Part shown: in pieces, positions 14,877 through 28,213 of the stretch
Layout: each line of letters opens with the position of its first letter
Position numbering within the stretch: the stretch's first letter is position 1
Source of the DNA: an uncultured bacterium
Lineage (GTDB): Bacteria; Krumholzibacteriota; Krumholzibacteriia; JACNKJ01
Assembly: GCA_963695095.1 (NCBI GenBank)
Contig: CAVOFT010000001.1
Coordinates: 1,760,001-1,824,000, forward strand
Length of the DNA stretch: 64,000 nucleotides
Direction of reading: 5' to 3'
Notes under the pieces: generated by a model
What the model was told of the DNA's origin: nothing
Databases searched by the model: none
The model's input: the letters and a program-made list of their open reading frames with translations, nothing else
Made by a program: the position numbers and the translations under genes

Positions 14877-15931
14877 AGCCGCGGCTCACGATCGAGACCC
14901 TGCGCCTGACGACGCGCTATCCCTTTGTCATCGCGCGGGGCGGGGCGCAGCAGTTCGAGAATCTCGTCCTCGCGATCGAGGCCGACGGCCTCGTGGGCGA
15001 GGGCGAGGGCAGTCCCACGCACTACTATGGCGAGACGCCGGCAATCAGCCGCGCGGCGCTGGAGTTCCTGCTCGCGGAGCTGGCGGAGCCGCTGGCGGCG
15101 GCGCTCGCCACGCTGTCGCCGGAGGCCATCGCGGCCCTCATGGCCGCCGCCGATCGCCGGCTGGCCGGCAATCCGGCCGCCAAGGCCGCCCTGGACGGCG
15201 CGCTCTGGGACCTCCACGGCAAGCAGCAGGGCGCGCCCGTCTGGCGGCTGCTCGGATTCACGGAGCCCGCGCGCCTGGCCAGCTCCTTCACCATCGCCCT
15301 GGCTGAGCCCGAACTGATGCTCGCGCGGGCCGAGGAGGCGGTGGCGGCCGGCTACGGCATCCTCAAGCTCAAGGCCGGCAGCGAGCGGGACATCGAGCTG
15401 GTGGAGGCCGTCGCCGCGGCCACGGGTGCGCGCCTGCGCGTGGACGCGAACGGGAGCTGGCGCGCCGCCGATGCCCTCGCCAAGCTCGAGCGCCTGGCCA
15501 TGGCCGGCGTCGAGTTCGTCGAGCAGCCGCTGGAGCTGGACGACCTCGCCGGCTACCGCGCCCTCGTCAGTCGCGCGCCGCTGCCCATCGTGCTCGACGA
15601 GAGCGTCCACGATGCGCTGGGCCTGGAGGTCTTCGGCGAGCTGGCCGACGGCATCAACCTGAAGATCTCCAAGCTGGGCGGGATCACGCGTTCGCTCGCC
15701 CTCGCCCGCAGCGCGCGGGTCTTGAACCTCGACCTGATGATGGGCTGCATGATCGAAAGCAGTCTGGGCATTGCCCAGGCGCTGCAGCTCGCGCCTTTGC
15801 TGCGCTGGGCGGACCTGGACGGCGCGCTGCTGCTCGCCGCCGACCCCTACGCGGGCTTGACCGAGGCGGCGGGGGTCTTCACCCTGGGCGAGGAACCGGG
15901 TCTGGGCGTTCATCGGAGGGAGGCTCGCTGA
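14873..15931 (+). CDS. Dipeptide epimerase (L-Ala-D/L-Glu epimerase / DgcA-like, enolase superfamily)
   Basis: [50 protein letters not shown]. Confidence 0.9.
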
Positions 15932-16446
15932 TGCGACTCAAGCAGGTGGCCGTGATCGGAGACGCGGAGGCTTCCGAAGCCGCCCTCGTCTTCGCCGAAG
16001 CGCTGGGCCGCGCCATCGGACGCCACGGCTGGGCGCTCGTCTCGGGCGGCCGGGACGGCGTGATGGGCGCGGCCAGCCGCGGCTGCCGCGCGGCGGGGGG
16101 CATCGTCGTCGGTATCCTGCCCAGCGCCGACGACAGCGCCGGCAACGAGCACTGCCAGGTGCTCCTGCCCACGGGCATGGGCTGGACGCGCAACAGTCTC
16201 ACCGCCCTGGCGGGGGACGTCGTCGTCGCCATCGGCGGCCGCGCCGGCACGCTCACCGAGATCGCCTATGCCTGGAGCTACGGCAAGCCCATCCTGGCCG
16301 CGACCGGCCTGGGCGGCTGGAGCGAGCGCCTGGCCGGCGAGGCCATCGACGACCGCCGACCCGACCGCCTGCAACCGGTGGCCACGGCGGCGGCGGCCGA
16401 GGCGGCCCTGCTGGCCCTGCTCGGCGAGGGCGAGGCCCGCGCGTGA
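15931..16446 (+). CDS. TIGR00725/LOG-family Rossmann-fold protein
   Basis: VAVIG, SGGRDGVMGAASRG, TGMGWTRN, GGRAGTLTEIAYA. Confidence 0.85.
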   Translation: MRLKQVAVIGDAEASEAALVFAEALGRAIGRHGWALVSGGRDGVMGAASRGCRAAGGIVVGILPSADDSAGNEHCQVLLPTGMGWTRNSLTALAGDVVVAIGGRAGTLTEIAYAWSYGKPILAATGLGGWSERLAGEAIDDRRPDRLQPVATAAAAEAALLALLGEGEARA

Positions 16447-17708: not shown

Positions 17709-18133
17709 TCCATCCCATGCTCTGGGCCGCGCTCGCGAGCGGGCTGGCGGCCCAGCTCTACAAGGTGCTCGTCGAGAGTCTGCGCGAGCGGCGCCTGAAG
17801 CTCTACCGCTTCTTCGAAACCGGCGGCATGCCCAGCAGCCACACGGCCGTGGTGACCAGCCTCGCCGTCGGCGCCTGGCGGGTCAACGGCTTCGACTCGC
17901 CCTTGTTCGCGATCACGGCCGTCTTCAGCCTCTACTTCATCCTGGAGGCCACCGGTCTGCGCCAGGAGGTGGGCAAGCAGGCGCGGGTGCTCAACGAGAT
18001 CCTCGACGAGCTGATCGACACCCGCCATTTCGCCCGCGAGCGCACCCGCGAGCTGCTCGGCCACACCTGGAGCGAGGTGGGCTGGGGCTTCTTGCTCGGC
18101 CTGGTGGTGACCGTGCTGCTGGTCCGACCCTGA
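17705..18133 (+). CDS. Divergent PAP2 family protein (DUF212)
   Basis: AQLYK, GGMPSSHTA, GLRQEVGKQARVLN, ELLGHTWSEV; GTGA overlap. Confidence 0.9.
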   Translation: MIHPMLWAALASGLAAQLYKVLVESLRERRLKLYRFFETGGMPSSHTAVVTSLAVGAWRVNGFDSPLFAITAVFSLYFILEATGLRQEVGKQARVLNEILDELIDTRHFARERTRELLGHTWSEVGWGFLLGLVVTVLLVRP

Positions 18134-18267: not shown

Positions 18268-19350
18268 ATGAAGGTACTGGCCGTCGTCAATCAGAAGGGG
18301 GGCTGCGGCAAGACCACCCTGGCGATCCACCTTGCCGCCGCCTGGGCCAAGGAGGGCTTCCGGGTCCTGCTCGTGGACCTCGATCCCCAGGGTCATGCCT
18401 CGCTCGGCCTCGGCGTCGAAGTCGAGAACTGCGCTCGCGGCTCCTACGATCTGCTCAGCGATCCCGCGGCGACGCTGGCCGAGATGGCCGTGCCGGTCCA
18501 GGCCCATCTCGACCTGGTGCCCGGCGGCATCATCCTCTCGGCCGCCGAGCAGGAGCTGGCCCGCCAGCCCGGACGGGAGAGCCGTCTGCGCAGCGCACTC
18601 CTGCGCCACGGGGGCGCCTACGACTGGGTCGTGGTGGATACGGCGCCTGCGGTGGGGCTGCTGACCTTCAATGCCCTGGTGGCGGCCGATGCCCTGCTCG
18701 TGCCCGTCGACAGCAGCACCTTCACCCTGCACGGCCTGCAGAAGATTCTCGAGACCCTGGAAGTGCTCGAAGAGGAAACGCGCCGCCGGCCGGCCTGCTT
18801 CGTGGCGGCCAACCAGTTCGACCCGCGCACGCTCTTCAGCCGCGAGCTCTATGCCGAGCTGGCGGCCAACAGCCGGATCCGTCTGCTCGAAACGCGCGTG
18901 CGCAGCAGCGTCCGCGTCAAGATGGCCGCCGCCGGCGGCGTGCCCGTCATGGACCTGGCGCAGCCGGGGCCCGTCCGCCTGGACTTCGAGAACCTGGCCG
19001 AGGAGCTGTGGAACCATCTCACCGAGCTCAGCCTGGAGCGGGACCGCGAACTGGAGTCCCTGCTCTTCGGCCCCCAGCTCTGCGAGGAGGGCATCCGCTT
19101 CCGCCTGCGCGCCCCCGAGGCGCGCGAGGTCTATCTCACCGGCAGCTTCAACCACTGGAATCCCGGCGGCATCCCGCTCGCGCCGCGACCCGGGGCCAGC
19201 GGCGCCTGGGAGGTCGTGCTGCCCCTGACGCCGGGCAACTACGAGTACCGCTACATCGTCGACGGCCGGTGGGTGACCGATCCCAGCCATCAGCAGACCC
19301 GCCTCAACGACCTGGGCGTGGAGAACTCGCTGCTCGTCGTCGGCGGCTAG
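18268..19350 (+). CDS. ParA/Soj-family ATPase fused to a C-terminal AMPK-beta-type glycogen-binding domain (CBM48)
   Basis: NQKGGCGKTT deviant Walker A, VDLDPQGHAS, VVDTAP; C-term AREVYLTGSFNHW...GNYEYRYIVDGRWVTDP...NDLGVENS. Confidence 0.9.
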   Translation: MKVLAVVNQKGGCGKTTLAIHLAAAWAKEGFRVLLVDLDPQGHASLGLGVEVENCARGSYDLLSDPAATLAEMAVPVQAHLDLVPGGIILSAAEQELARQPGRESRLRSALLRHGGAYDWVVVDTAPAVGLLTFNALVAADALLVPVDSSTFTLHGLQKILETLEVLEEETRRRPACFVAANQFDPRTLFSRELYAELAANSRIRLLETRVRSSVRVKMAAAGGVPVMDLAQPGPVRLDFENLAEELWNHLTELSLERDRELESLLFGPQLCEEGIRFRLRAPEAREVYLTGSFNHWNPGGIPLAPRPGASGAWEVVLPLTPGNYEYRYIVDGRWVTDPSHQQTRLNDLGVENSLLVVGG

Positions 19351-19366: not shown

Positions 19367-20069
19367 ATGAGGCCGGCGAGCGGAGAGCGACGCCAGAGCA
19401 ATCACATCCGCAGCATTTCCTGGCTCTTCCTGAGCGAGGGCAAGCGGCGCGCCGGCCCTGCCCCTGGCACCGCCCACTGCCTGCTGCCGCCTCGCGGGAG
19501 CGCCCGGCTCGCCCTGGTTGCTCGCCCTGGCCGTGAATCTGGGCCTCGCCGCTCGCCAGCGGGGCGAGAGCGCCTGCCTCGAGTTGCCGGCCGCCAGCCT
19601 CCCGGTGGCGGCCCGTCTTCTCGGCGCGGCGCCGGAGGCCCTCGGCCTCGACTGGCGCAGCGGCGCCGCGGCGCCCGCCTGGCTGGAGCCGCTGCCGGCG
19701 CTCTATCTCGCCTCCGCGCTGCCTACGCTGCCGCTGGGCCTGCCCGCCTGCCGCTGGCGCTTCCAGCTCGGCGAGGGGCCGCTGCCGGGGGCAAGTCCCG
19801 TCCTCGCCCTGCTGGAAGGTCCCGAAGCGCTGCTGCCGGCGGCGGCGGGCGCGCCGCTCTTCCTGCTTGGCCTGGAGTGCCTGCCGGTGCCCCGCCCCGG
19901 GGTGACGGGGATCTGGGGGCCGCTGGCTCGGCACCAGCTCCTCGATCCGCGCCGCGAAGGCACGCCTGCCCTCCGCGCGGGGGACGCAGCGGTCGCCCGC
20001 CGCTATGGCGGCTTCCTGGAAGCGCTCCGTTCCATGCCGGCGCCCAGTCGGCAGGAGCAGCCCGCATGA
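19367..20069 (+). CDS. Hypothetical protein, probable degenerate ParA/MinD fold (one frameshift near 19439)
   Basis: ATG 19367 frame (…IRSISWLFLSE) joins the 19518..20069 frame if one G is removed from GAGGGC; LALAVNLGLAARQRG and GTPALRAGDAAVARRYGGFLEAL resemble ParA/MinD helices; no Walker A. Confidence 0.5.
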
Positions 20070-20389
20070 GCCCCGCCGCGCCCAGCCCTGCGCAGCTCCC
20101 GGCGATGGAGCCCGTGGTGGCCGTGCTCCTGCGGCGCTTCGAGCTGCAGCTCACCCAGCTCGACGCGCGCATCCGCCTCGAGGAGAGCCCCCTGCGCCGG
20201 GTCTATCGCCTCGACGATCAGGTGCTCGCCGTGCTGCATCTGCATCGGGACCTCTTCCGCCTGGAGACGGGCGGCGTACCGAGCTGGGAGGCCCGGATCC
20301 GCAGCCCGGAAGAGGCCCTGGCCGGCCTCGCCCGCGTGCTGGACCACTACTGGCGGCTCCTGGCGAGCGGCGCGCGGCGCGAAGCCTGA
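20066..20389 (+). CDS. Small hypothetical protein (107 aa)
   Basis: ATGA overlap with the upstream stop, RBS AGGAG, protein-like composition (LLRRFELQLTQLDARIRLEE...). Confidence 0.65.
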   Translation: MSPAAPSPAQLPAMEPVVAVLLRRFELQLTQLDARIRLEESPLRRVYRLDDQVLAVLHLHRDLFRLETGGVPSWEARIRSPEEALAGLARVLDHYWRLLASGARREA

Positions 20390-23416: not shown

Positions 23417-23488
23417 TAACGCCTCTTGTCAGCGACATCACCCCTTCTGTCGCCCAGCGGACAGAAAACCACCACGCAGGAGACCCGG

Positions 23489-26400
23489 ATGTACGCTCGC
23501 CTTGCTCACCCTTTGCCTCGGCATTCCCTATCCCTGCGCCTGCTGCTCCTCACACTGCTCGTGCTCGCCAGCCTGCCCGCTGCCGCCGCTCAGATCGAGT
23601 GGACCTGGCGCGCCGAACCTGGCCTGCGCGCACTTGCAGACGGCGAGGATCTTGCCGCTCTGCTGGCTGAGCAAGCCTGGCAGACCGAGACGGCGGATCG
23701 CCCCGCCCTGCCCCTCTTCCCGCTCAGCCTGGCCATCCCCAGCGGCGAGCGCGTCGTGAGCGTTCATCTCGAAGACGTCCTGAGCGACCGCATCGCGCTG
23801 GACGCAGCGCTGCCCGCCTTCGCCGGCAGCGTGAACGAGGACGGGCTGCGCCGCGCGCTCTCGCCGCCTGCCGAGGGCGGCAGCTTCCCCGCGGACTTCC
23901 TCCATCTCTACAGCACCTTCCGCTACCGCGGCTTCGCCACGGCCGAAATCGCCCTGGCTCCTCTGCGCTACGAGGTGACGGCGGCGGGTCCCCTTCTCCA
24001 TCGCCTGCTCGCCGCCCGCGTGGTGGTGGAGACGGAGCCGGATCCCTCGGCGCTCATCCCCCTGCGCCAGCGCAGCGAGGACCTCGCGCGGGGCCAGCGC
24101 TTCCAGCAGCGCCGCGTCGCGAACAAGAACGCCGTCGCGGCCTTCGTTCCCCCCAGCGCGGTACGGCGTGACGAGGGCGTGTTCGCGCCGCGCTCCCTGC
24201 CCAGCATCGAGGGCAGCGGCGTGGACATGGTGATCGTCTGCTCGCCGCAGCACACCGCGACCTTCCAGACCCTGGCCGACTTCAAGCTCAGCCTGGGGCT
24301 GCCCACGGTGGTGCGCGACACCGACTGGATCCGCGCCAACTATCCCCAGGGCGCGGACCTGCAGGAGACGATCCGCTTCTTTCTCCAGGACGCCCTGGCC
24401 AAGTGGGGCATCCGCTTCGTGCTGCTGGCGGGCGACACCAATGACCTGCCCGTGCGCCGCATCTACTCCTACTTCAAGGATCCGCCGGAGGAGATTCCCG
24501 CCGAGCTCTACTTCGCCGACCTGGACGGCGACTGGAACGGCGACGGCGACTCGCACTTCGGCGAATCCACCTACGGCGGCACCCAGGGCGACGGCGTCGA
24601 CATGATCGCCGACGTCTTCCTCGGCCGCGTACCCGTGCGCGACGCCGCCAGCGCGCAGCTGATGGTCGACAAGATCATCGCCTACTCGAGCGCGCCGGAC
24701 CCCGACTACGCCACCAACATGAGCTTCTACGCCGAGGTGCTCTTTCCGGCGACCTGGCAGATCGGCGACCCCGTCGAGCTGATCACGCGCAACGGCGCCG
24801 ATTACGCGGAGAGCGTGAACAGCAGCTTCGTGACGCCGCAGATGGACGTGGTCCGCTTCTACGAGACGCACTGGCTGTATCCGGGCTCGGTGGCCGAGAC
24901 GCCGGCCGTGACGCTGAACGATATGAACACGCGCGCACATGTCGTGCTGCACGTCGGCCATGGCTTCCGCTACACGATGTCGATGGGCACCGGCTCGGTG
25001 GTCGCCAATGACATGCTGAACCTCACCAACGGCCTCGATCGGCTGGCCTCCATCTACGCGCTGAATTGCACGTCCTGCGCCATCGACTACAGCTGCCTCG
25101 GCGAGGCGGCGCTGCTGGCGCCGGCCGGCGGGGCCGTCTCGATGATCGGCACCATGCGCGAGGCCTTCCCCAACACCAGCGTCTACTACCAGAACTCCTA
25201 CTTCGGCTATCTCTACGGCGACAGCCTCAGCCTTGGCGAGTGCTTCACCAGGAGCCACAATGACTGGGCGCTGCTGGGCTCCGTCGAAGGCAGCCATCGC
25301 TGGACGCAGATGAGCTATCTGCTGATCGGCGATCCCTCGCTCGATGTCTGGCTGGACACGCCTCAGGCGCTGGCGGCCGCGCTCGTCGAACCCTACACGC
25401 TCACCAGCGACACCCTGAAGCTGCAGGTGAGCCGGGACGGCTCGCCGCTGGTCGGGGCCCGCGTGATCGCCAGCAAGCCGGGCGAGCATCGGGCGGAGGC
25501 GCTGAGCGACGCGGGCGGCTTCGTCGCCATTCCCTTCCGGGCGGAGTCGCTGGGGGACATCGAAGTCAGCCTGCTTCACCGCAACGATCTGCCCAGCTTC
25601 GCCCAGGTCCCGGTGACGGCGGGCAGCGGACCGCGCCTGGCTCTGGAACTGCTCAGCGTCGTCGACGACCCCAATGTCGATGCGCAGCTGGCCGGCAACG
25701 CCGATGGCCTGCTCGACGCCGGCGAGACCGTGCGCCTGGCCCTGCGCGTGCTGAACAGCGGCACGACGGCGGCGACGGCGCTCAACCTCGATCTCAGCCT
25801 GCCCGGCGGCGAGCTCAGCGTCCTCGACGGCCAGGAGGCGACCGGCCAGAGCGTGCCGGCCGGCGGTCAGCTCGACTTGCCCGCCGTCTTCCTGCTCGAG
25901 GCGCCGCAGACCCTCGCCGATCGCAGCAGCGCGCTGGTGGACATCGCGCTCAGCTACGGCGGCGGGACCGAAACGGACCAGCTCGAGCTGAGCGCCCACG
26001 CGCCGGTGCCCGGCCTGTTCACCTTCGTCATCGATGATGCAGCGGGCGACGGCGACGGCCAGCCGGACGCCGGCGAGACCTACAGCCTGATGCCCGTGTG
26101 GAAGAACTACGGCAGCACGCCGCTGGCGGGCTGGCAGGCCAGCCTGACGGCCATCGATCCGGCCGGCCAGGTGCTGGGCGGCCCCGTCGCCTTGCCGGGG
26201 CTGGGACTGCTCGAGCGCGGAGCCTCGGCGGGCATCAGCCTGCGCGAGACCAGCGTGGCCAGCCCCAACCGCTTCCAGCTCACGCTCAGCGGCCCGCTCG
26301 GGGAGGCGATCGTCGACACGATCACCGTGCGCCGGCCCACGCCCCCCGTTGGCCTGGAGCTCGATTCGAGCCAGGCCAGCACCGTCATCGACATGGCCTG

Positions 26401-28213
26401 GCTGATTCCGGCTCCGGCGCCGGCGGCCTATCTCGTCTACCGCAGCACCAGTCCCGGCGGACCCTACACGCTCGTGTCCACCGAGCCCACGCATCACGCC
26501 TACTTCCGCAACGATCAGCTGGCGGAGAGCACCACCTACTACTTCACCGTGGAGAGCGTGGACTCCTCGGGCTTCCGCAGCCCGCCCAGCGGCGAGTTCG
26601 CCTGGAGCACCAACCCGGCCATGCTCGACGGCTGGCCCCTGCAGACGAGCTTCGGCACCGCCAGCAGCCTGGTGATGGGCGACATCGACGGTGATGGCGA
26701 CAAGGAACTGGCAGCGGGCGCCGAGCTGCTCTACGCCTGGCACCACGACGGCGTCGAGATCTTCGACGGCGACGAAAACTCGGTCACCTACGGCGCGCTC
26801 AGCGCTGTCGGCGGCCAGTTCACCGCCGGCCTGGCGATGGCAGACGTCGACACGCTCTACCCGGGTCTGGAGATCATCGGCGCCTCGCGCGCGCCCAACG
26901 GCATCTACGTCTACCACGGCGACGGCACGCAGGCGCCGGGCTGGCCCAAGAGCCTGCCCAACTGGTGCTGGGCGACGCCCGCGGTGGGGGATGTCGACGG
27001 CGATGGCAGCGTGGAGATCTTCGCCGTCTGTCTGGACGGCACCCTGCGCGCCTGGAATGCCGACGGCACGCCGCAGATCGGCACGACGGGCATCTTCGCC
27101 AGCGGCCTCGGCAGCTGGTCGCGCTCGAGCCCCAGCCTCGCCAACCTGGACGGCGACGCCGATCTCGAAATCGTGCTCGGCAGTTCGGGCACAAGGAAGA
27201 TCTACGCCTTCAATCCGAACGGCAGCGCCGTGACGGGCTTCCCGGTCACCTTCACCGGCGAGATCCACTCCAGTCCCTCGCTGGGGGATCTCGACGGCGA
27301 CTACGACCTCGAGATTGTCTTCCTCTGCGAGAACGACTCGCTCTACGTGCTCAATCACAACGGCACCCGCTACCCGGGCTTCCCGGTCTACCTGGCCAGC
27401 AACGCGGCCGGGCTCGCGCCGAGTCCGGCGCTGGTCGACTTCGAGGACGATGGGCAGATGGAGATCGTGGCGGGCGGCGTGTTCGCCTACACCAGCATGA
27501 ACCTGACCGTGCTGAACAACCAGGGGCAGACCCTGCCGGGCTGGCCCAAGCACTTCGAGGAGAGCAGCGAGGCGAGCCCCGTGGTGATCGACCTCGACGG
27601 CGACGGCGAGCTGGAGATCCTGCTCGGCATGGAAACGGGCTACCTCTACGCCTTCAACGAGGACGGCAGCGACGTGGCCGGCTTCCCCATCCTCACGGAC
27701 GCCGAGCTGCGCAGCTGCCCGACGGCCGACGATCTGGATGGGGATCTCGACCTCGACATCGGACTCTACGGCTGGGACGCCTTCGTCTACGTGTGGGACA
27801 TGTCCGTCTTCTACAAGAACGGCCTGCCGCAGTGGAAGATGTTCCGCGCCAATCCGGCGCGGACGGGCCTGTTCACGCGCGAGGAGCAGATGACGCCCAG
27901 CGAGGAGCTGCCGGCGAGCGCGCCGGAAGGCCGGCTCTATGCCAATTTCCCGAACCCCTTCAACCCCAGCACGAAGATCAGCTTCGCCACGCCGGCGGGA
28001 CAGGGCAGCGTGCAGGTGACGCTCACGATCCACGACGTGCAGGGCCGCCGTCTGGCGACGCTGCAGGATGGCCTGCTGCCGCGGGGCACGATGCAGAACG
28101 CCGTCTGGGACGGCAAGGCGGAGACCGGCAAGCCCGTGGCCAGCGGCATCTACTTTGCGCGCGTGACCATGGACGACACCGTGCATGCACGCAAGATGGT
28201 GCTGCTGAAGTAG
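23489..28213 (+). CDS. Gingipain-like C25 cysteine peptidase with propeptide, Ig/FN3 domains, FG-GAP repeats and FlgD/T9SS-type C-terminal domain
   Basis: Signal peptide; FVLLAGD, YFADLDGDWNGDGD, LGRVPV, catalytic HVGHG and NCTSC, LIGDP; repeated GDxDGDGxxEI; NFPNPFNPSTKI...WDGKAETGKPVASGIYF...RKMVLLK. Confidence 0.9.
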   Translation: MYARLAHPLPRHSLSLRLLLLTLLVLASLPAAAAQIEWTWRAEPGLRALADGEDLAALLAEQAWQTETADRPALPLFPLSLAIPSGERVVSVHLEDVLSDRIALDAALPAFAGSVNEDGLRRALSPPAEGGSFPADFLHLYSTFRYRGFATAEIALAPLRYEVTAAGPLLHRLLAARVVVETEPDPSALIPLRQRSEDLARGQRFQQRRVANKNAVAAFVPPSAVRRDEGVFAPRSLPSIEGSGVDMVIVCSPQHTATFQTLADFKLSLGLPTVVRDTDWIRANYPQGADLQETIRFFLQDALAKWGIRFVLLAGDTNDLPVRRIYSYFKDPPEEIPAELYFADLDGDWNGDGDSHFGESTYGGTQGDGVDMIADVFLGRVPVRDAASAQLMVDKIIAYSSAPDPDYATNMSFYAEVLFPATWQIGDPVELITRNGADYAESVNSSFVTPQMDVVRFYETHWLYPGSVAETPAVTLNDMNTRAHVVLHVGHGFRYTMSMGTGSVVANDMLNLTNGLDRLASIYALNCTSCAIDYSCLGEAALLAPAGGAVSMIGTMREAFPNTSVYYQNSYFGYLYGDSLSLGECFTRSHNDWALLGSVEGSHRWTQMSYLLIGDPSLDVWLDTPQALAAALVEPYTLTSDTLKLQVSRDGSPLVGARVIASKPGEHRAEALSDAGGFVAIPFRAESLGDIEVSLLHRNDLPSFAQVPVTAGSGPRLALELLSVVDDPNVDAQLAGNADGLLDAGETVRLALRVLNSGTTAATALNLDLSLPGGELSVLDGQEATGQSVPAGGQLDLPAVFLLEAPQTLADRSSALVDIALSYGGGTETDQLELSAHAPVPGLFTFVIDDAAGDGDGQPDAGETYSLMPVWKNYGSTPLAGWQASLTAIDPAGQVLGGPVALPGLGLLERGASAGISLRETSVASPNRFQLTLSGPLGEAIVDTITVRRPTPPVGLELDSSQASTVIDMAWLIPAPAPAAYLVYRSTSPGGPYTLVSTEPTHHAYFRNDQLAESTTYYFTVESVDSSGFRSPPSGEFAWSTNPAMLDGWPLQTSFGTASSLVMGDIDGDGDKELAAGAELLYAWHHDGVEIFDGDENSVTYGALSAVGGQFTAGLAMADVDTLYPGLEIIGASRAPNGIYVYHGDGTQAPGWPKSLPNWCWATPAVGDVDGDGSVEIFAVCLDGTLRAWNADGTPQIGTTGIFASGLGSWSRSSPSLANLDGDADLEIVLGSSGTRKIYAFNPNGSAVTGFPVTFTGEIHSSPSLGDLDGDYDLEIVFLCENDSLYVLNHNGTRYPGFPVYLASNAAGLAPSPALVDFEDDGQMEIVAGGVFAYTSMNLTVLNNQGQTLPGWPKHFEESSEASPVVIDLDGDGELEILLGMETGYLYAFNEDGSDVAGFPILTDAELRSCPTADDLDGDLDLDIGLYGWDAFVYVWDMSVFYKNGLPQWKMFRANPARTGLFTREEQMTPSEELPASAPEGRLYANFPNPFNPSTKISFATPAGQGSVQVTLTIHDVQGRRLATLQDGLLPRGTMQNAVWDGKAETGKPVASGIYFARVTMDDTVHARKMVLLK

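Follow-up and report, generated by a model that had tools for sequence, protein, structure and literature searches.

The window analysed here, a stretch of 64,000 nucleotides (C1:1760001-1824000) from the genome of an uncultured bacterium of the phylum Krumholzibacteriota, contains at 18268-19350 an open reading frame (ORF) for a protein, here called ParA-CBM, in which an intact deviant-Walker-A ATPase of the Soj type continues into a carbohydrate-binding module (CBM) of the CBM48/AMPK-beta type. Together with the two genes behind it, the fusion forms a unit in which the sequences firmly indicate a conserved ParA-type ATPase with a selected putative carbohydrate site, a partner whose dead ParA fold bears a ParB-like peptide, and an accessory protein of small size. 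The locus may be understood as a ParA/activator switch coupled to carbohydrate. As for its role, we tentatively favour a chromosomally fixed three-gene ParA module that, in genomes making glycogen, would anchor glycogen-like polymer or granules on the nucleoid and spread them by ParA-driven binding and release. The host genome comprises 3.64 Mb in 2 contigs (93.5% complete), and the DNA has a G+C content of 72%. The features of the module are as follows.

18268..19350, + strand: ParA-CBM48 fusion gene, 360 amino acids (aa), ATG start
18268..19017, + strand: ParA/Soj-like ATPase domain (residues 1-250), matched by AAA_31 and also holding D37/D39, the Walker B D124 and R187
19018..19065, + strand: variable linker (residues 251-266), 16% mean pairwise identity
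19066..19341, + strand: CBM48/AMPK1_CBM domain (residues 267-358), assigned by Pfam
19367..19438, + strand: N-terminal piece of ORF2, the ParB-like peptide MRPASGERRQSNHIRSISWLFLSE, severed from the body by a frameshift
19434..20069, + strand: body of ORF2, a predicted P-loop-less ParA/MinD-fold domain in another frame, open from 19434, first start TTG at 19518
20063..20389, + strand: ORF3, a small predicted alpha-beta5-alpha protein, ATG at 20063 or 20102

The N-terminal half of ParA-CBM is matched in Pfam by AAA_31 over residues 1-171 (E 2.3e-43, 148.6 bits vs a cut-off of 27) and by CbiA over residues 4-226 (E 1.2e-19, above the curated cut-off). It harbors the deviant Walker A motif KGGCGKT at residues 10-16 (18295-18315), followed by DLDPQG at 37-42, DTAP at 124-127, FDPRT at 184-188 and VRSSVRV at 209-215. 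The G+C content at third codon positions (GC3) of the ORF is 0.91, a value usual for real genes in 72% G+C DNA when G+C is compared between codon positions. In an alignment of 31 ParA-CBM sequences, which underlies the conservation and identity figures given for this protein, the ATPase positions K10-K15, D37, D39 and D124 are unchanged throughout and R187 is retained in 30. R187, part of the DPRT motif, lines up by eye with the arginine of the DRRLN segment in the genome's own Soj, and we take it to correspond to R189 of the Bacillus subtilis protein. Hester and Lutkenhaus are said to have found in 2007 that Soj-type ParA proteins bind DNA non-specifically through conserved arginines.

Among solved structures, the chains nearest to the ATPase half are 8ray_B (E 1.1e-36) and Soj of Thermus thermophilus (1wcv/2bek, E 2e-33), and the McdA structures 6noo/6non also match it (E 5e-15). 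None of the 25 NCBIfam families listed for ParA-CBM passes its cut-off. Among them, ParA_partition (NF041546) reaches 117.4 bits against a cut-off of 180, which places the protein outside the partition-ParA equivalog, and the BcsQ family TIGR03371 aligns full-length to residues 1-250 (E 7e-23, 81 bits vs a cut-off of 158).

The C-terminal half is matched in Pfam by AMPK1_CBM over residues 284-358 (E 3.5e-13, 50 bits vs a cut-off of 26.8) and by CBM_48 over residues 267-335 (E 4.4e-11, 43.4 bits vs a cut-off of 22.4), and its nearest solved structures are the CBMs of AMPK beta1/beta2 (4y0g, 2f15 and 1z0m, E ~1e-9). It contains GSFNHW at residues 292-297 and, further on, YRY, DGRW, DLG and ENS. 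The segments GSFNHW, YEYRYIVDGRW and NDLGVENS align with GSFNNW, HQYKFFVDGQW and SQLGTVNN of AMPK beta, positions which we take to be the cyclodextrin/sugar contacts in the structure of the AMPK beta1 CBM. Presumably, W100, K126, W133, L146 and N150 of rat beta1 thus align with W297, R328, W335, L349 and N353 of ParA-CBM. Positions W297, W314, Y327, D332, G333, W335, D338 and P339 are unchanged in all 31 sequences, N353 is retained in 30, and position 328 is occupied by Arg in 27, Lys in two and His in two. In the phylum, divergence of the CBM does not outpace that of the ATPase: mean pairwise identities are 47.6% and 48.8%, respectively, and 16% for the linker between them. These observations agree with an earlier sequence-only reading of this DNA, which had recognised an intact ParA and, joined to it, a CBM48 that keeps the contact pattern of AMPK-beta; the Pfam matches and the invariant residues bear it out, and every motif that it quoted is present.

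The same reading had noted that the window holds no parB, and this also stands. The single ParB_N match of the genome is located at C1:150098-150373, beside a canonical parA (C1:150729-151247) about 1.6 Mb from the window. Since the sole ParB_N match adjoins another, canonical parA at this distance, ParA-CBM represents an extra, orphan ParA. A third AAA_31-type ParA-like gene of the genome is found at C1:2770851-2771360 (L004; E 1.9e-36), within an open frame of 411 codons.

The joining of the two domains is not a matter of chance, because the best 120 ParA-CBM homologues listed all contain both PF13614 and PF16561. These proteins are 350-384 aa long, except P0015 (a 278-aa fragment) and P0117 (478 aa), and those with names derive from metagenome-assembled genomes of Krumholzibacteriota (76% identity for the nearest one with a name), Eisenbacteria, Latescibacteria and Gemmatimonadetes. 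In the phylum, surveyed as 208 species genomes with carriers defined by a full-length match at E<=1e-40, ParA-CBM is present in 152 genomes, in 93/125 high-quality genomes and in 66/81 genera. The gene is nearly always single-copy; two copies occur in one genome and are sisters in the tree. This genome, G200 of family f9, carries them at C1:1789209-1790282 and 960939-962012 (L064, L065), with a 646-aa gene downstream of the second. The ParA-CBM module is inherited vertically through its phylum as a core gene. In a quick maximum-likelihood tree built from 47 ParA-CBM proteins and the genome's Soj, the family labels change 9 times, which is the minimum possible (mean of 29 after shuffling), and families f1, f2, f3, f6, f7 and f8 each form a single branch with SH-aLRT support of 97-100.

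In a scan of species genomes, at least 592 relatives of ParA-CBM are found among 600 pattern matches. Nearly all of the 80 relatives kept are full-length, L136 being matched over residues 1-249 only, and the titles of their records point to Eisenbacteria, Gemmatimonadales, Fibrobacteraceae, Chitinivibrionia, Desulfobacterota, Myxococcota, Planctomycetota, Omnitrophota, Spirochaetales, Acidobacteria, Rokubacteria and Nitrospirae. The gene's spread across phyla is patchy. Longer relatives amount to 43 proteins at E<=1e-30, and the CBM is found in two of them only (P0121 and P0122). Most of the other long relatives (P0123-P0163), the nearest ones to the ATPase half, are Planctomycetota proteins of ~1150 aa in which a ParA is joined to cadherin/Ig-like repeats.

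The fusion architecture is already in print. A bioRxiv preprint by Li, Burroughs and Aravind (10.64898/2026.10.19.760177, 22 October 2026), computational only as far as its main text goes, describes 'ParA-CBM', a ParA fused to a C-terminal AMPK1_CBM, and the statement of the sequence-only reading that no system of this kind had been described does not hold. The ParA-cadherin/Ig proteins mentioned above are probably the receptor-like ParA proteins treated in the preprint section that precedes the one on the CBM. In a full-text literature search for AMPK1_CBM and ParA as whole words, this preprint alone was found. Searches for ParA-like positioning of glycogen granules and for glycogen-binding ParA/MinD proteins returned nothing, and similar searches were swamped by the word 'para'. 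The conserved operon headed by ParA-CBM, the dead ParA fold of ORF2, the ParB-like peptide, and the CBM rate and genomic context that speak against immunity are new here.

ORF2 begins within 16 nt of ParA-CBM, and ORF3 overlaps or abuts it. Of 29 related loci, 24 have ORF2 under a strict filter, and it is additionally visible in two (L019 and L025). The protein is ~230-310 aa long, the GC3 of its body frame is 0.80-0.95, and no Pfam family is matched in 25 ORF2 proteins. A model of an intact same-genus orthologue (pLDDT 83.4) has disordered residues 1-38 followed by a folded body, for which Foldseek gives BcsQ (6yb5, E 1.5e-4, prob 1.00) as the top match, then MinD, FleN/FlhG, NifH and Soj. 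No P-loop is present at the Walker A site of the body in this phylum. Among the 18 ORF2 counterparts listed, GxxxxGK(S/T) is retained in four, and the counterpart L075 from Thermodesulfobacteriota matches the Pfam families ParA (4e-10) and AAA_31 (1e-9). As judged from the predicted model, the ORF2 body is a catalytically dead ParA fold.

The predicted disordered N-terminus carries a conserved start motif. It reads HIRSISWLFLS in the window's family; the form (R/K)xLxDVSHLFLS is that of the other families. Intact orthologues in six loci of the same family start with M..(R/K)..HIRSI..(L/Y/H)FL(S/G), continuous with the body. Counterparts in other phyla start with the ParB-like peptide LGRGLEDVSHLFLS. 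Among 78 loci from many phyla where the ParA-CBM ORF was found, the downstream gene opens with a (D/E)(V/I)SH(L/F)FLS-type core in 54, and in 15 of these the core is preceded by LG(R/K)GL (for example, KPLGRGLEDVSHLFLS). The genome's own ParB begins KKVLGKGLDAILS. According to PMC12462528, a synthetic peptide of the ParB motif alone stimulates the ParA ATPase, and the central position is occupied by Lys rather than Arg in about half of the chromosomal ParBs. The terms 'LGRGL', 'N-terminal peptide', 'arginine finger' and 'ATPase-activating' do not occur in the main text of the preprint.

The body behind the peptide differs, being a dead ParA, a dead nuclease-like domain or, in Planctomycetota, long regions, as would be expected if the peptide is the constant element contacting ParA. 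In five loci from Gemmatimonadales and Rokubacteria (L113, L114, L119, L121 and L131), the partner starts with LGRGLEDVSHLFLS and its body reads GEIDLLGIDRTNQLTIIDFELT. Inspected by eye, this body has a PD-(D/E)xK-like pattern with T at the lysine position, and is likely an inactive nuclease that replaces the dead ParA. The ORF2 peptide is likely the ATPase activator of ParA-CBM. The implication of the sequence-only reading that a built-in cargo module makes a separate adaptor dispensable is wrong, since the conserved partner ORF2 lies downstream and has, at the N-terminus of its dead ParA fold, a peptide resembling that of ParB. One of the two long relatives with a CBM, P0121 (1101 aa), is a ParA-CBM with a long C-terminal extension holding 'LDELAGLFLTE', which is like the core of the partner peptide; it may be a fusion of ParA-CBM with its partner, or equally a read-through artefact. 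P0121, P0122 and P0127 have no match to the ORF2 or ORF3 hidden Markov models (HMMs).

In the window, the ORF2 reading frame is broken between ~19436 and 19500. In an alignment of this DNA with two same-genus genomes, the linker there varies too strongly for the indel to be located. In a search for matching sequencing runs, the share of sampled words was at most 0.10 in every run, and the listing included no RNA run. The frame breaks of ORF2 and of the host glgA reflect either indel errors of the assembly or decay of both genes; since glgA is also matched in two frames, assembly indels are the simplest explanation. At 19367-20389 (+ strand), a single frame of 340 codons runs without a stop from the start peptide of ORF2 through ORF3, and a gene caller could report from it a chimeric 340-aa protein in which the N-terminal motif of ORF2 would be followed by out-of-frame sequence and then by ORF3. 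Relatives show ORF2 followed by a separate ORF3.

ORF3 encodes a protein of ~95-130 aa with a GC3 of 0.85-0.97, and is found in 17 of the 29 loci by position and in six more by tblastn. Its model (pLDDT 93.5) consists of a helix, five strands and a helix. In structure comparison it comes closest to YjbR (2fki, Z 8.7) and to proteins of the frataxin/CyaY/YdhG kind (Z 7-8), all in the middling range. No restriction endonuclease (REase) is among the top 50 structural matches, Foldseek gave nothing at E<=0.001, and no Pfam family is matched in 18 ORF3 proteins. The ESM Atlas provides a weak lead, with DUF5919 on 30% of members and 154 shared features. Among 1.84 billion proteins, the ORF3 family has 71 representatives, two of which sit behind a PD-(D/E)xK-like domain. 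Such fusions probably explain why the preprint's main text uses the label 'REase'.

Taken together, the module could work as follows. ParA-CBM would be an active deviant-Walker-A ATPase forming an ATP-dependent dimer like Soj, and the dimer would probably bind the nucleoid. Its C-terminal CBM48 would hold an alpha-glucan-type carbohydrate. The disordered peptide of ORF2, in which aliphatic residues surround a basic one, would dock on the ParA dimer and trigger ATP hydrolysis and release, and the rest of ORF2, the putative dead ParA (in other phyla a dead nuclease-like or another body), may serve as an anchor or sensor. ORF3 may act as a small accessory alpha/beta protein. In genomes that make glycogen, a glycogen-like polymer or granules would thereby be tethered to the nucleoid and spread by the bind-and-release cycle of ParA. 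This extends the granule proposal of the sequence-only reading by a partner protein.

Glycogen is the best single cargo candidate in this genome, which possesses an alpha-glucan set composed of GlgA, two GlgC-like genes, a GT35 phosphorylase, two GH57 genes and one CBM48 enzyme. The host glgA (PF08323) is located outside the window at C1:1991745-1992480 (L010, L011), in two abutting frames that cover model positions 1-175 and 174-238. With strong GlgA defined as PF08323 at E<=1e-15 over the 208 phylum genomes, it is present in 125 and lacking in 27 of the ParA-CBM carriers, and present in 28 and lacking in 28 of the non-carriers; the genomes are related to one another, so these tallies are not independent statistical tests. 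Family f1 is split in the manner of a co-loss, with GlgA in all seven carriers and in none of the five non-carriers. PF08323 at any strength is matched in 170/208 phylum genomes. The GH13 branching enzyme GlgB (TIGR01515) was considered as a glycogen marker and rejected as poor in this phylum, where it exceeds its cut-off in 16/208 genomes; branching is probably done by GH57 enzymes.

Several observations weigh against a glycogen-distributing module. Strong GlgA without ParA-CBM occurs in 28 genomes, and in families f8 and f9 none of the 18 carriers has a strong GlgA. Further markers were examined in five of these carriers with high-quality genomes (G173, G174, G176, G196 and G198). One of them, G173, has a GH13-GH77-GT35-GH57 cluster. 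The other four (92-96% complete) are without PF08323, TIGR02091 (E<=1e-20), PF00128, PF03065, PF02446 and PF00343, and their ParA-CBM proteins retain every CBM contact residue (FTNWS, YEYRFIVDGxW and NEFGQENS). Because these four marker-less carriers keep the CBM site, the module can evidently persist where a classical glycogen pathway is absent; in them, either the ligand is something other than classical glycogen or it is made by a pathway not yet recognised. In addition, no glycogen gene is adjacent to ParA-CBM in any of the 21 + 80 loci clustered, ORF2 is frameshifted and glgA is matched in two frames in this assembly, and the profile match between ORF2 and ParA-CBM is weak (17% probability in hhalign), though in register over the P-loop region; the kinship of ORF2 with ParA was decided by the fold search instead.

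The expectations of the sequence-only reading are therefore borne out in part. It had looked to the domain architecture and to co-occurrence with glg genes, and both domains are present in the best 120 homologues and GlgA in 125/152 carriers, but in none of the 18 from f8/f9. It had also taken a lack of glycogen pathways in carriers as a sign against a glycogen role. That lack is seen in f8/f9, where 18/18 are without strong GlgA and 4/5 of those probed are without the six markers, and not in the 125/152. Its idea of glycogen granules as cargo is in line with the alpha-glucan genes of the host and with the GlgA of most carriers, and at odds with the four marker-less carriers that retain the CBM site. 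The simple glycogen idea fails in some lineages.

ParA/MinD ATPases are a general bacterial device for placing large objects. If the cargo of ParA-CBM is glycogen, bacteria would actively partition a storage polysaccharide. We regard as rather doubtful, yet worth stating, that the module is a housekeeping partition machine whose ATPase grips glycogen-like granules or another cytoplasmic glycan body via the CBM48 and is reset by the ParB-mimicking peptide on its dead ParA or dead nuclease. If true, it would be the first dedicated segregation/positioning system for a polysaccharide store, present phylum-wide and scattered through at least ten other phyla.

The genomic context of the module is given by its neighbours, of which the nearest upstream gene in the window is the following.

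17717..18133, + strand: DUF212 (divergent PAP2) membrane-protein gene (Pfam E 2.3e-37), directly upstream of ParA-CBM

ParA-CBM sits in conserved housekeeping synteny in its phylum. DUF212 lies directly upstream in 12/21 loci across families (11 called, plus that of the window, which the ORF caller missed), and further neighbours include SBP_bac_5, CarB, ClpB, a SurA-like gene, NamZ and MrfA. Downstream of the module are TldD/PmbA, a matrixin/fn3 lipoprotein, a C25 peptidase, or Wzy_C/GT4/WecA-like genes. The window encodes at 23426-28213 (+ strand) a 1595-aa protein with Peptidase_C25, FG-GAP repeats and a C-terminal FlgD-Ig-like domain, and C25-type genes lie a few genes downstream of the module in 8/21 loci (cluster c3). 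A SLOG/LOG-like gene (LDcluster4) is located near ParA-CBM at 15931-16446 (+ strand). A related gene recurs in 3/80 loci from other phyla (cluster 11), for example at L087:4084-4764 with Lysine_decarbox and LDcluster4. No effector-type enzyme recurs beside ParA-CBM in the 80 loci from other phyla.

Instead of gripping a cargo, the CBM48 might sense alpha-glucan or oligosaccharide, gate the ATP/DNA cycle of ParA and report carbohydrate status to a nucleoid-linked or cell-cycle process, by analogy with AMPK beta, whose CBM acts as a glycogen sensor. The sequence-only reading had named such regulation as its alternative. We consider this unlikely, although the domain and contact-residue evidence is the same as for glycogen tethering. 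The dead ParA and dead nuclease-like bodies and the YjbR/frataxin-like ORF3 resemble binding or sensor modules more than cargo adaptors, and no cargo-type gene is linked in the loci examined. However, four carriers without the six alpha-glucan markers retain the site, and the operon has no regulator or DNA-binding helix-turn-helix (HTH) and no identifiable downstream target.

A further possibility is that the CBM48-like domain binds another glycan or glycoconjugate, such as an envelope-polysaccharide intermediate at the inner face of the membrane, with ParA localising or regulating a polysaccharide machine as BcsQ does for cellulose synthase, or that it binds a protein. The retained site in genomes without alpha-glucan enzymes agrees with this. 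Envelope-glycan genes lie nearby, namely DUF212/PAP2-like genes in 12/21 loci, a PMT_2 glycosyltransferase upstream in the window, and Wzy_C, GT4 and WecA-like genes downstream in f3/f7 loci. Moreover, TIGR03371 (BcsQ) aligns to the ATPase half, below its cut-off, and BcsQ is the top structural match of ORF2. Nevertheless, the contacts equal the alpha-glucan-binding pattern of AMPK beta position for position, and described CBM48 members bind alpha-glucans. The neighbouring genes vary between families, so the linkage to any one pathway is weak, and no membrane-targeting helix follows the CBM because the protein ends at residue 360. A ligand other than glycogen therefore appears improbable to us, to a degree similar to the sensing role.

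The preprint (10.64898/2026.10.19.760177) places ParA-CBM in its conflict branch ConB5 and, in the main text, proposes an immune role, drawing on rapid divergence of the CBM and a sporadic distribution. In such an anti-phage or conflict system, the CBM would be a lectin responding to a carbohydrate that derives from infection or to the depletion of polysaccharide; DNA would be sensed by the dead nuclease or dead ParA, and ParA multimers would contain the invader. The second variant of the preprint, in which an inactive ParA that evolves rapidly and an inactive REase are present as well, corresponds to the window operon, where ParA-AMPK1_CBM is indeed followed by a second inactive ParA. ORF2 evolves fast, with identities of 39-57% within family f1, where ParA-CBM is 75-92% identical, which fits a conflict system and a loosely constrained adaptor alike. 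The patchy spread across phyla and the partner body in Gemmatimonadales/Rokubacteria, which reads as a degenerate PD-(D/E)xK domain, also agree with an immune role.

In the phylum, however, the traits on which the preprint's main text builds its case are not seen. The CBM diverges no faster than the ATPase (47.6% vs 48.8%), and the gene is near-universal (152/208), single-copy and congruent with taxonomy, the distribution being patchy across phyla only. The synteny is that of conserved housekeeping genes, and no effector enzyme is linked. Against PADLOC-DB v2 (2023 library), three ORF2 proteins, three ORF3 proteins and DUF212 have no match, and ParA-CBM matches PDC-M28B alone (E 2.7e-4), at the level of the P-loop (residues 7-39). 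Vertical inheritance, core synteny and equal domain rates together argue against the immune reading in this phylum, and we rate it as quite improbable.

Compared with the preprint's ParA-CBM, as described in its main text, the module of the window shares the ParA fused to a C-terminal AMPK1_CBM; of the additions in the second variant, the inactive ParA corresponds to ORF2 and the inactive REase probably to ORF3. The two differ in that the preprint reports a sporadic distribution and a fast-diverging CBM, whereas the present family occurs in 152/208 genomes, is vertically inherited and has a CBM as conserved as its ATPase; moreover, ORF3 here matches frataxin/YjbR-like structures and not an REase.

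BcsQ resembles the module in being a ParA/MinD-fold protein that works with a polysaccharide system, cellulose secretion, and in being the top structural match of ORF2; unlike ParA-CBM, it has no CBM, and no bcs genes are near the module. The CBM48 of AMPK beta includes the nearest solved relatives of the C-terminal half (E ~1e-9), with what we take to be the same contact positions. Here, however, the domain is fused to a bacterial P-loop ATPase and not to a kinase scaffold, the position of K126 is occupied by Arg, and that of L146 varies among hydrophobic residues.

The chromosomal ParABS system (Soj and Spo0J/ParB) has in common with the module a deviant Walker A ATPase, that of ParA-CBM being nearest to Soj structures, and a partner with an N-terminal LG(R/K)GL-type peptide as in ParB. 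In contrast to ParB, the partner here is without ParB/Srx, HTH and CTPase domains, and the ATPase bears a CBM48. In addition, a true parAB pair is located elsewhere in this genome, and the ParA_partition score is below its cut-off. The McdA-McdB and PomXYZ systems share with the module an orphan ParA-family ATPase, a non-ParB activator with a putatively stimulating N-terminal peptide, and a non-DNA target. To our knowledge, all ParA/MinD cargo systems use a separate adaptor, and in McdA-McdB and PomXYZ it is the partner that recognises the cargo. In the present module, the candidate cargo module is instead the sugar-binding domain built into the ATPase itself, and the likely activator is a ParB-type peptide mounted on a predicted dead enzyme fold, that of a ParA or a nuclease.

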